A DNA stretch of 64,000 nt from Escherichia coli. GTDB lineage: Bacteria; Pseudomonadota; Gammaproteobacteria; Enterobacterales; Enterobacteriaceae. The position numbers and the translations under genes were made by a program. Shown piece after piece: positions 3,420 through 9,472 of the stretch; positions within the stretch are counted from its first letter, which is position 1; each line of letters starts with the position of its first letter. The notes under the pieces are model-generated. The model did not search any database, was not told where the DNA came from, and saw only the letters and a program-made list of their open reading frames with translations. Location: NCBI RefSeq assembly GCF_003018255.1, contig NZ_CP027440.1, one strand, 5' to 3'.

Positions 3420-4796
3420 ATGAAAATTATCATTCTGGGTGCCGGCCAGGTTGGCGGCACACTGGCGGAAAACCTGGTTGGCGAGAACAACGATATTACT
3501 GTTGTCGATACCAACGGTGAGCGTCTGCGGACCTTGCAGGATAAATTTGACCTGCGAGTCGTGCAGGGGCATGGCTCTCATCCACGCGTATTGCGGGAGG
3601 CAGGTGCCGACGACGCCGATATGCTGGTTGCTGTAACTAGTTCAGATGAAACCAATATGGTTGCCTGCCAGGTAGCCTACTCACTTTTCAACACCCCTAA
3701 TCGCATCGCTCGTATCCGCTCACCAGACTACGTGCGCGATGCCGATAAACTATTTCATTCAGATGCTGTACCGATTGATCATCTGATCGCACCAGAGCAG
3801 TTGGTTATCGATAATATTTACCGACTGATTGAGTATCCCGGCGCATTGCAGGTGGTGAACTTCGCTGAGGGTAAAGTCAGCCTGGCTGTGGTTAAAGCCT
3901 ATTATGGCGGCCCGCTGATTGGTAATGCACTTTCGACCATGCGCGAACATATGCCCCATATCGATACTCGTGTGGCAGCAATTTTCCGCCACGATCGCCC
4001 CATTCGTCCGCAAGGTTCGACCATTGTTGAAGCTGGTGATGAAGTGTTCTTTATTGCCGCTTCACAGCATATCCGCGCGGTGATGAGTGAATTACAGCGA
4101 CTGGAAAAACCGTATAAGCGGATCATGCTGGTTGGCGGCGGTAATATCGGTGCAGGGCTGGCGCGTCGTCTGGAAAAAGATTACAGCGTTAAACTCATCG
4201 AACGTAATCAGCAGCGCGCTGCCGAACTGGCGGAAAAGTTGCAGAATACGATCGTCTTTTTTGGTGATGCGTCGGATCAAGAACTGCTGGCCGAAGAACA
4301 TATCGATCAAGTTGATCTGTTTATTGCTGTCACCAACGATGACGAAGCCAATATCATGTCCGCCATGCTTGCCAAACGTATGGGTGCGAAAAAGGTGATG
4401 GTATTGATCCAGCGTCGCGCTTATGTGGATCTGGTTCAGGGGAGCGTGATCGATATTGCGATTTCACCGCAACAAGCAACTATTTCTGCGTTGCTTAGCC
4501 ATGTGCGAAAAGCTGATATTGTTGGTGTTTCCTCACTGCGCCGCGGCGTAGCAGAAGCTATTGAAGCCGTTGCTCACGGTGATGAAAGCACCTCACGCGT
4601 TGTCGGCAGAGTCATTGATGAAATCAAGCTACCGCCAGGAACGATTATTGGAGCGGTGGTACGTGGAAACGACGTGATGATTGCCAATGACAATCTGCGC
4701 ATTGAGCAAGGCGATCACGTAATTATGTTCCTCACAGATAAAAAGTTTATTACCGACGTCGAAAGACTCTTCCAGCCAAGTCCTTTCTTCTTGTAA
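3420..4796 (+). CDS. trkA: Trk potassium uptake protein TrkA (NAD-binding)
   Basis: ORF track 458 aa; two Rossmann motifs ([15 protein letters not shown]). Confidence 0.95.
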
Positions 4797-4801
4797 TTAA
4801 T

Positions 4802-4835
4802 AAGGCGTCTAATGACGCCTTATTATTTCCCTTTG
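4802..4835 (+). terminator. Rho-independent terminator after trkA
   Basis: Hairpin aaggcgtc-taat-gacgcctt followed by T-rich tract directly after trkA stop. Confidence 0.6.
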
Positions 4836-4925
4836 ATTATCAGGGATTAATTAAATTCACTCCTGGCAGGAAAATAGCTTAACATTTGTTAGACTTATGA
4901 TTGTCGGCTTCATAGGGAGAATAAC

Positions 4926-5336
4926 ATGAGCATTATTAAAGAATTTCGCGAATTTGCGATGCGCGGGAACGTGGTGGATTTGGCGGTGGGTGTCATTATC
5001 GGTGCGGCATTCGGGAAGATTGTATCTTCACTGGTTGCCGATATCATTATGCCACCTCTGGGGTTATTAATTGGCGGGATCGATTTCAAACAGTTTGCTG
5101 TCACGCTACGCGATGCGCAGGGGGATATCCCTGCTGTTGTGATGCATTACGGTGTCTTCATTCAAAACGTCTTTGATTTTCTGATTGTAGCCTTTGCCAT
5201 CTTTATGGCGATTAAGCTAATCAACAAACTGAATCGGAAAAAAGAAGAACCAGCAGCCGCGCCTACACCAACTAAAGAAGAAGTATTACTGACAGAAATT
5301 CGTGATTTGCTGAAAGAGCAGAATAACCGCTCTTAA
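4926..5336 (+). CDS. mscL: Large-conductance mechanosensitive channel
   Basis: ORF track 136 aa; recognisable MscL sequence (two TM helices, charged C-terminal tail). Confidence 0.97.
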
Positions 5337-5551
5337 CAAGCGCCTGAAAGCAGAAGGCCAGTGGTAAAAAAGTGATTTACTTTCTTGCCACTGGCCTCCC
5401 AGTTCCCCCGATTGCCATGTTTTCCTTTTCGCATGTAACTGCCTTTCCCTTTCTTATTTCTCTCTACGCGCTGTCGGAATAAGGGATCATGTAGTAATGC
5501 TTCTATCGCATTATCCTTTATCTGCCCTTTAGTATGCTGATATCGGCTCAT
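5333..5551 (-). CDS. arfA: Alternative ribosome-rescue factor A (full-length 72-codon frame)
   Basis: ORF track 72 aa ([44 protein letters not shown]...); convergent with mscL with 4-nt 3' overlap. Confidence 0.9.
5356..5396 (-). other. Stable hairpin inside arfA coding region (RNase III / truncation site by established knowledge)
   Basis: Perfect 9-bp inverted repeat ggccagtgg ... ccactggcc read in sequence, covering about codons 52-65 of arfA. Confidence 0.7.
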
Positions 5552-5606
5552 AAAAACTCCAATTGGTTATTTAACGGCGCGAGTGTAATCCTGCCAGTGT
5601 AAAAAA

Positions 5607-6032
5607 TCAACAGCCACTCTTAACGCCACTCGCCCCTTGTTCAAGAGCTTCAAGAATCGAGCAATAAACACTGCTATGGGCGGTCCCACAACAGGCATCG
5701 TTAAGGCGTTGGAGGGAACGCTGCATACTCTGCAACTCGGCTATCCGTGCTTCGACTTCCTGCAATCTTTCCTGCACAATGCCTTTTGACTCCTGACAGG
5801 TATGGTGTTCAGGATCGATACGGATCGACAGCAACTCGCGGATCGACTCTAGACTGAAACCTAGTTGTCTGGCATGGCGGATAAATTTCAATCGCTGGAG
5901 ATCGCTTTCGGTATACAGGCGAAACCCACCTTCAGTACGCACTTCATGCTCCATCATCTGCTGTTTTTCGTAATAACGAATCGTGTCGGGTGTTACTTCC
6001 GCCATTTTTGCCAGCTCACCAATGCGATACAT
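5607..6032 (-). CDS. zntR: Zn(II)-responsive MerR-family regulator
   Basis: ORF track 141 aa; N-terminal MerR HTH, C-terminal Cys-rich metal site. Confidence 0.93.
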   Translation of the reverse strand: MYRIGELAKMAEVTPDTIRYYEKQQMMEHEVRTEGGFRLYTESDLQRLKFIRHARQLGFSLESIRELLSIRIDPEHHTCQESKGIVQERLQEVEARIAELQSMQRSLQRLNDACCGTAHSSVYCSILEALEQGASGVKSGC

Positions 6033-6042
6033 ACATACTCCA

Positions 6043-6411
6043 CTAGTTATCGTTGATTTTATTCAACAACTTGTCAGCATAATCGCCGCGTAAAAAATCG
6101 GTGCTCAGTCCAGCTTGTCGCAGCTTCAATTCCAGTAATGACAATCGACGGCTAACCTCTTGATATTGCGGATCATCGTGACGGATACCTCTCAGGATAT
6201 CCAGAAGCTGAATTGCTTCCCTCCGCTGCTCAAGTTCTGGCGGTAAGCAACCGGCATTCTTCAGCAAGCGATACCCCGCACGTAATTCCGGTGGCACATG
6301 AGAATCATCAGCCAGTATCAATGGTTCGCCGCTACCTGCCAGGTTATCAAACTCACCTTTCGCTTGCGCTTCTGCTATATGACGCTCTGCCCACTGGTCA
6401 AGTAACCACAT
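6043..6411 (-). CDS. yhdN: Uncharacterised protein YhdN (DUF1992-like)
   Basis: ORF track 122 aa; ends 10 nt upstream of zntR start, same strand. Confidence 0.85.
   Translation of the reverse strand: MWLLDQWAERHIAEAQAKGEFDNLAGSGEPLILADDSHVPPELRAGYRLLKNAGCLPPELEQRREAIQLLDILRGIRHDDPQYQEVSRRLSLLELKLRQAGLSTDFLRGDYADKLLNKINDN

Positions 6412-9016: not shown

Positions 9017-9472
<456 letters not shown>

Follow-up and report, generated by a model that had tools for sequence, protein, structure and literature searches.

The perfect inverted repeat inside the arfA reading frame of this Escherichia coli strain is, with a probability that we put at roughly 93%, the core of the E. coli arfA autoregulatory hairpin, a reading that includes Rho-dependent termination of the convergent mscL transcript and its trimming, as we infer them for the opposite strand. 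Both the arfA hairpin and its second role at the mscL 3' end are real, were rightly interpreted in an earlier note made from the sequence, and are already published, being partly included in the K-12 reference annotation. Beyond Morra et al. 2023, we add only comparative and strand-polarity statistics. Three small refinements are that selection acts on the arfA strand, that the mscL end is probably Rho-dependent and trimmed, and that it depends on the strain whether the 9-bp stem is perfect. Our own computations cover the structure as well as its conservation, its polarity between the strands, and its lack of dependence on mscL; what is said about cleavage sites, control by tmRNA, the position of the 3' end, sensitivity to bicyclomycin, and the antisense effect comes from published experiments. 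Nothing among the evidence gathered contradicts the arfA part of this reading.

The mscL-arfA locus and its hairpin

The window analyzed here is a stretch of 64,000 nt from E. coli (assembly GCF_003018255.1, contig NZ_CP027440.1), and all positions are given in window numbering. The relevant features are as follows.

3420-4796, + strand: trkA (ORF list)
4926-5336, + strand: mscL coding sequence, convergent with arfA (ORF list; Pfam MscL, E = 2.6e-47)
5333-5551, - strand: nominal arfA ORF, 72 codons plus the stop codon (ORF list; Pfam ArfA, PF03889; annotated as arfA in 5,425 E. coli genomes)
5607-6032, - strand: zntR (ORF list; Pfam match to a MerR-family regulator)
beyond zntR in the gene order: yhdN, rplQ, and rpoA
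5356-5364: left arm of the perfect 9-bp repeat (ggccagtgg on the plus strand; sequence)
5388-5396: right arm of the perfect 9-bp repeat (ccactggcc on the plus strand; sequence)
5351-5401, - strand: arfA regulatory hairpin, with a lower stem of 14 bp and an upper stem of 8 bp, separated by a C/A mismatch (5387/5365), and a 5-nt loop at 5374-5378 (folding and inverted repeat)
5387-5551, - strand: expressed part of arfA as a non-stop mRNA, codons 1-55, ending at the RNase III site 5387|5386
5333-5386, - strand: arfA-derived sRNA yrdG, 54 nt, antisense to the mscL 3' UTR; the cut at 5363|5362 yields pieces of ~24 and ~30 nt
5337-5400, + strand: mscL 3' UTR, +1 to +64 (Term-seq end; legend of Fig. 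2A in Morra et al. 2023; plus-strand fold of -30.6 kcal/mol)
5398-5480, + strand: C-rich, G-poor tract, where Rho probably loads and terminates mscL read-through (composition and published Rho region)

The 72-codon frame that the earlier note had assigned to arfA was confirmed, as its product matches Pfam PF03889 over residues 4-45 (E = 2.5e-25; 88.1 bits against a cutoff of 25.5) and PDB ArfA chains at E = 1e-46. The mscL and arfA ORFs overlap by 4 nt (TTAA, 5333-5336). This overlap comprises both stop codons and one base of the last mscL sense codon rather than the last codons of arfA, as the earlier note had it. In total, 721 bases around the hairpin are 100% identical to E. coli strain 104, and this region was found in 5,425 of 5,426 complete E. 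coli genomes, where the annotation is always mscL / arfA / zntR. The alignment to K-12 MG1655 has a constant offset of 3,433,098 (window position 5336 is 3438434) and shows 22 single-base differences in 901 bases, one of which (window position 5357) is located inside the hairpin.

Several other elements were observed in the window. Just past the trkA stop codon, in the trkA-mscL spacer, a perfect hairpin of 10-12 bp (4798-4825, plus strand) is followed by TTTCCCTTTG; the scan scored it as terminator-like, it is probably the trkA intrinsic terminator, and a plus-strand promoter-like match overlaps it. A 10-nt inverted repeat with 90% complementarity and a 41-nt spacer (5576-5585 / 5627-5636) spans the zntR stop codon and reaches into the spacer between zntR and arfA, in which we presume the arfA promoter to be located; this repeat may be due to chance. 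The sole Rfam family above its gathering score in the window is Alpha_RBS, the alpha operon ribosome binding site, at 9341-9452 on the minus strand (102.7 bits); its presence is expected in the alpha ribosomal protein operon, upstream of rpsM.

The perfect 9-bp repeat occurs exactly where the earlier note had placed it and corresponds to arfA nt 156-196. Its location was given correctly as approximately codons 52-65, although the actual span is codons 52-66. The 9-bp core is separated from the mscL stop by 19 nt, in agreement with the claim that the two lie within 20 nt of each other. However, a hairpin with a 9-bp stem describes only the core of the structure. A repeat finder extended the arms to 19 nt (5355-5373 / 5379-5397; 89% complementarity, 5-nt loop), and RNA folding of the arfA strand yielded a helix of ~22 bp that spans 5351-5401, i.e., arfA nt 151-201 or codons 51-67, with the stop codon following at nt 217-219. 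The stem-loop is therefore placed 3' of the functional domain and 5' of the stop codon, within the arfA ORF.

On the arfA strand, the minimum free energy was -39.7 kcal/mol for 91 nt (z = -4.9), and the complementary hairpin on the mscL strand reached -30.6 kcal/mol over 5353-5398 (z = -4.4); in both cases, none of 200 shuffled sequences folded as well. When 51-nt sliding folds were ranked on both strands across the whole 64-kb window, the arfA-strand hairpin was first among 42,634, and its plus-strand version was within the top four. Perfect inverted repeats of at least 9 bp numbered 18 in the window, with 5.8 expected. The bare 9-bp repeat is only mildly unusual, and the weight is carried by the extended helix and its conservation.

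The 19-nt arm has no further copy within the window, and the idea that it belongs to a repeat element was therefore rejected. Rfam searches of 4700-6200 (by E-value) and of the whole window (at the gathering threshold) assigned the hairpin to no family; all that appeared were microRNA-like matches below the threshold, attributable to chance.

The arfA (yhdL) of published work on E. coli K-12 (Garza-Sanchez 2011, Chadani 2011, Schaub 2012) is the same gene with the same context (trkA-mscL-arfA-zntR) and the same hairpin. A single helix base differs, namely MG1655 position 3438455 (window position 5357), which is A in K-12 and G in the present strain. On the arfA strand, the K-12 allele gives a G·U pair, and on the mscL strand it leaves A mismatched with C, whereas a G-C pair is found here, so that the 9-bp core is perfect and the helix is stronger by 2.7 kcal/mol on the arfA strand and by 7.2 kcal/mol on the mscL strand. 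Given this difference from K-12, the 'perfect' 9-bp stem is strain-specific, and the natural pair of alleles at 5357 could be used to separate the functions of the two strands.

Truncation of the arfA message and control by tmRNA

According to reviews that cite Chadani 2011, Garza-Sanchez 2011, and Schaub 2012, the arfA stem-loop either serves as an RNase III cleavage site or brings about premature termination, and both routes lead to a non-stop arfA mRNA whose product is tagged by tmRNA; the same reviews describe full-length ArfA as unstable owing to its hydrophobic tail. Mutations in the stem are reported, in the published accounts available, to alter arfA mRNA levels as well as those of the ArfA protein. 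In addition, a transcriptome-wide map of RNase III cleavage detected the arfA sites anew, with 2-nt overhangs. The RefSeq annotation of K-12 contains a 54-nt ncRNA, yrdG, described as an 'arfA-derived small regulatory RNA', at 3438431-3438484 (window 5333-5386). The statement that this hairpin is where the arfA mRNA is truncated by RNase III or termination, that ArfA is made from a non-stop message, and that it is itself under tmRNA control is thus borne out by the reviews, by the RNase III map, and by the yrdG annotation.

These data made it possible to assign the cleavage sites in window numbering. Since the 5' end of yrdG is at 3438484 (window 5386), the first RNase III cut maps to 5387|5386, right at the end of codon 55. 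Morra et al. 2023 (PMC10070815) describe two arfA sRNA pieces, nt 166-189 and nt 190 to the stop codon, and the second cut, arfA nt 189|190 in that work, corresponds to window 5363|5362. Cleavage at both sites would leave a 2-nt 3' overhang across the helix, and the predicted helix geometry (~22 bp with the implied 2-nt 3' overhangs) is consistent with RNase III cleavage. Besides chains of 72 residues, the solved ArfA-ribosome structures include constructs or models of 45-61 residues.

Mapping of 3' ends on both strands had been proposed as a check of the earlier note, and published Term-seq supplies it in part: a plus-strand end was found at window 5400, and no arfA-strand 3' end is listed in the tables of Adams et al. 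The truncation site is therefore neither confirmed nor contradicted by those data; low abundance of the arfA mRNA is a likely cause of the missing end.

Our preferred account of these findings is the following sequence of events. The arfA transcript would fold into the ~22-bp helix within its own coding region, and RNase III would cut it twice, at 5387|5386 in one arm and at 5363|5362 in the other; where this does not happen, RNA polymerase would terminate just past the helix. The arfA mRNA would then end at codon 55 with no stop codon, and ribosomes would stall at this end, where tmRNA-SmpB, as long as it has spare capacity, would tag the ArfA peptide for degradation. Once trans-translation is saturated, an untagged ArfA of 55 residues would be released, recruit RF2, and rescue stalled ribosomes, so that codons 56-72 of the nominal ORF would essentially never be used. 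The 54-nt fragment released by RNase III, yrdG, would pair with the mscL 3' UTR and lower the level of mscL mRNA.

As such, the arfA hairpin is a textbook case in which a gene, by having its own message cut short, senses the load on the main ribosome-rescue system, and the backup factor is made only upon overload. A similar arrangement is known for brfA of Bacillus subtilis, where a Rho-independent terminator inside the ORF precedes the stop codon. Like ArfA, BrfA is a release-factor-dependent rescue factor produced from an mRNA truncated within its own ORF and therefore repressed by trans-translation. It differs from ArfA in that its protein family is unrelated, its mRNA is truncated solely through intrinsic termination, no RNase III step being known, and it has no convergent mscL.

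The 3' end of the mscL transcript

In Morra et al. 2023 (PMC10070815), the mscL 3' UTR extends from +1 to +64, a length attributed there to Ju 2019, and contains a predicted stem-loop that RNase III cleaves in vitro. That study further reports that RNase III cleaves both the mscL and the arfA RNAs in vitro, that expression of the arfA hairpin region as an sRNA lowers mscL mRNA, and, citing Kawano et al. 2005, that a 49-nt sRNA originates from the mscL 3' UTR. The coordinates of yrdG and of the mscL 3' UTR in that system correspond one-to-one to 5333-5386 and 5337-5400 of the window, with the stem-loop present on both strands, and no difference between the two systems was found. As published, the overlap of arfA and mscL links translation stress to the expression of an osmotic-stress channel.

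In the Term-seq tables of Adams et al., where the sequence given for a 3' end covers 50 nt upstream and 10 nt downstream of it, MG1655 3438498 appears as a 3' end of the plus strand for each of the three growth conditions. This position is window 5400, i.e., +64 from the mscL stop and 3 nt beyond the hairpin arms. The proposal that the hairpin also serves as the mscL 3'-end structure is thus upheld both by this end and by the UTR of Morra et al. 2023.

Adams et al. also list a bicyclomycin-sensitive plus-strand Rho region at 3438536 (window 5438; Rho score 5.8, p = 3e-28), whose position is imprecise since 800-nt windows were used, as well as a weaker minus-strand Rho region at 3438487 (score 2.5). 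In untreated cells, downstream reads amount to ~30% of upstream reads (73 vs 245), which reflects read-through and/or other antisense transcription. Past the hairpin, the plus strand of 5398-5480 (83 nt) contains 33.7% C and 14.5% G, placing it in the top 1.1% of windows for excess of C over G. This tract is C-rich and G-poor because it is antisense to the Lys-, Gly-, and Arg-rich codons of arfA, and the composition holds in all 80 related species that we compared (see below).

The mscL-strand tail after the hairpin is CUCCCAGUUCCCCC (also given as CTCCCAGTTCCCCC), with ~3 T in 12 nt here and 2-5 across the 80 species, as compared with ~7 here and 5-8 across species on the arfA strand. For mscL on the plus strand, the stem of an intrinsic terminator is therefore present and the U-tract is absent. 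Given the lack of a U-tract and the bicyclomycin-sensitive region, a 3'-end stabilizer acting after Rho termination is likelier than an intrinsic terminator. Transcription of mscL would run past the hairpin into the C-rich antisense-arfA tract, where Rho would terminate it, and 3' exonucleases would then trim the transcript back to the hairpin. Judged from these genome-wide tables, the mscL end would probably result from Rho-dependent termination and trimming rather than from intrinsic termination.

It is unlikely, in our assessment, that the hairpin is instead a true bidirectional intrinsic terminator, which would stop RNA polymerase arriving from both mscL and arfA with no involvement of Rho, possibly helped by head-on collisions. 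Such a terminator would explain why the plus-strand 3' end follows the arms at a distance of 3 nt, and it would account for the moderately U-rich tail on the arfA strand, which recurs across species; clear U-runs follow the arfA hairpin in distant species, and Ju 2019, which deals with bidirectional terminators and is the source of the UTR length in Morra et al. 2023, may itself class the site in this way. However, the T-poor tail on the mscL strand does not fit, a consensus terminator scan called the hairpin on neither strand (the call closest to it being a weak minus-strand stem of 5 bp, 5342-5328), plus-strand reads downstream rise upon bicyclomycin treatment, and G·U wobbles weaken the mscL-strand helix (see below). 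Intrinsic termination is accordingly plausible in the arfA direction only.

Rho-dependent termination followed by trimming, which we prefer for mscL, resembles the Rho-dependent ends trimmed back to a protective hairpin for which Adams et al. cite Dar and Sorek 2018. The shared features are a stable hairpin with no U-tract at the 3' end, C-rich and G-poor sequence downstream, and bicyclomycin-sensitive read-through; for mscL, the putative assignment to this class is drawn from genome-wide tables. More tentatively, the locus may be a two-strand device in which the antisense of the ArfA codons serves as the Rho-loading site that ends mscL transcription and the hairpin only protects the trimmed mscL 3' end, a possibility about which we remain rather doubtful. 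If it were true, changes in arfA transcription or RNase III activity could tune both the termination and the stability of mscL, in addition to what the sRNA is already published to do.

The mscL 3' end at 5400 is 68 nt into arfA, so that the pair qualifies as convergent genes with overlapping transcripts, and mscL-arfA is present in the ExcludonFinder list of gene pairs. Like the convergent-gene excludons and overlapping bidirectional 3' ends of E. coli, it has a transcript overlap (~68 nt) on which RNase III acts. Unlike them, the mscL/arfA overlap is located inside the coding region of one partner and doubles as a self-truncation signal.

Conservation and strand polarity of the helix

With the aim of comparing the hairpin among Enterobacteriaceae, 80 loci (one genome per species) were compared and arfA nt 130-230 aligned. 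Among these species, the nominal arfA ORF is 68 to 93 codons long and overlaps mscL by 0 to 65 nt, and the position of the hairpin is fixed; the stop position is unconserved, as would be expected if the stop codon is not used. Identity at third codon positions was 0.945 in the helix arms vs 0.625 in the functional N-terminal domain, and past codon 67 identity drops to 0.3-0.6 at all codon positions. Judged from the varying ORF end and this drop, the codons 3' of the hairpin appear to be dispensable or unconstrained.

Paired cells made up 91.8% across the 80 species vs 43-64% when partners were slid by 1-3 columns. The apical pair covaries (CG in 45 species, UA in 30, and UG in 5, with none unpaired). 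The lower 14-bp stem is almost invariant, including synonymous positions, with no compensatory swaps and only changes from G-C to G·U; within Enterobacteriaceae, it therefore provides evidence of conservation only and none of covariation. This invariance hints at a sequence-specific need beyond pairing, which might be, e.g., the selection of the RNase III site.

The two strands differ in how well they tolerate the observed changes. Read as arfA-strand RNA, the 22 core pairs contain 247 G·U vs 12 A·C cells, and at least 20 of the 22 form on the arfA strand in every species, as compared with 16-19 on the mscL strand. These wobble and pair counts indicate that the helix is selected as arfA-strand RNA.

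This polarity bears on a further alternative, namely that the hairpin exists mainly for mscL, as a 3' stabilizer or terminator, with arfA merely overlapping it and its conservation reflecting the needs of mscL. The mscL gene is adjacent to and convergent with arfA in 80 of 80 loci, the hairpin core is 7-22 nt (mode 20) from the mscL stop, and the mscL 3' end maps to the hairpin, all as this alternative would have it. We nevertheless consider it very improbable: the wobble counts favor the arfA strand, an A·C mismatch in the mscL-strand helix is tolerated in K-12, published stem mutations shift arfA mRNA and ArfA protein levels, and the hairpin occurs at the same position inside the ORF in distant loci that lack an mscL neighbor. 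That the repeat is a mere by-product of coding constraint (on the EASGK and FFTTG residues) or a chance palindrome is scarcely credible. Residues E52-K56 and F61-G65 are indeed conserved in the protein alignment and the window does hold 18 perfect 9-bp inverted repeats, yet the third positions of the arms are near-invariant, residues 56-72 are beyond the RNase III cut, the end of the ORF drifts, the fold outperforms every shuffle and every other local fold in the window, and compensatory changes are present.

The reading as an arfA hairpin was further examined in ten distant ArfA genes, which were located by searching protein-cluster representatives and looking up the contigs. All 10 carry a hairpin within the 3' part of the ORF, as determined by scanning and direct folding (by direct folding for L083 and L091). 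No mscL gene was called adjacent to arfA in 6 of the 10 (L086, L087, L088, L090, L091, and L093), and since the hairpin is kept in these loci, it is independent of mscL. In several distant loci, the arfA hairpin is followed by a U-run, resembling an intrinsic terminator, and one distant relative shows a compensatory change (CCAAUGG/CCAUUGG) in the lower stem that is invariant within Enterobacteriaceae.

Two further observations concern individual groups of loci. In two Salmonella enterica subspecies (L017 and L025), 14 nt between the hairpin and the mscL stop are deleted (arfA nt ~200-215), so that no more than 9 nt separate the hairpin core from the mscL stop codon and the nominal arfA ORF grows to 89 codons; in these loci, the base of the hairpin would probably be unwound by a ribosome that terminates on mscL. 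Among the distant homologues, a W-E-(A/S) motif, encoded by UGGGAG(GC/UC)C, recurs at the 5' foot of the hairpin in L083, L085, L087, L088, and L093, whose stems otherwise differ, and this recurrence could reflect a constraint at either the protein or the RNA level.
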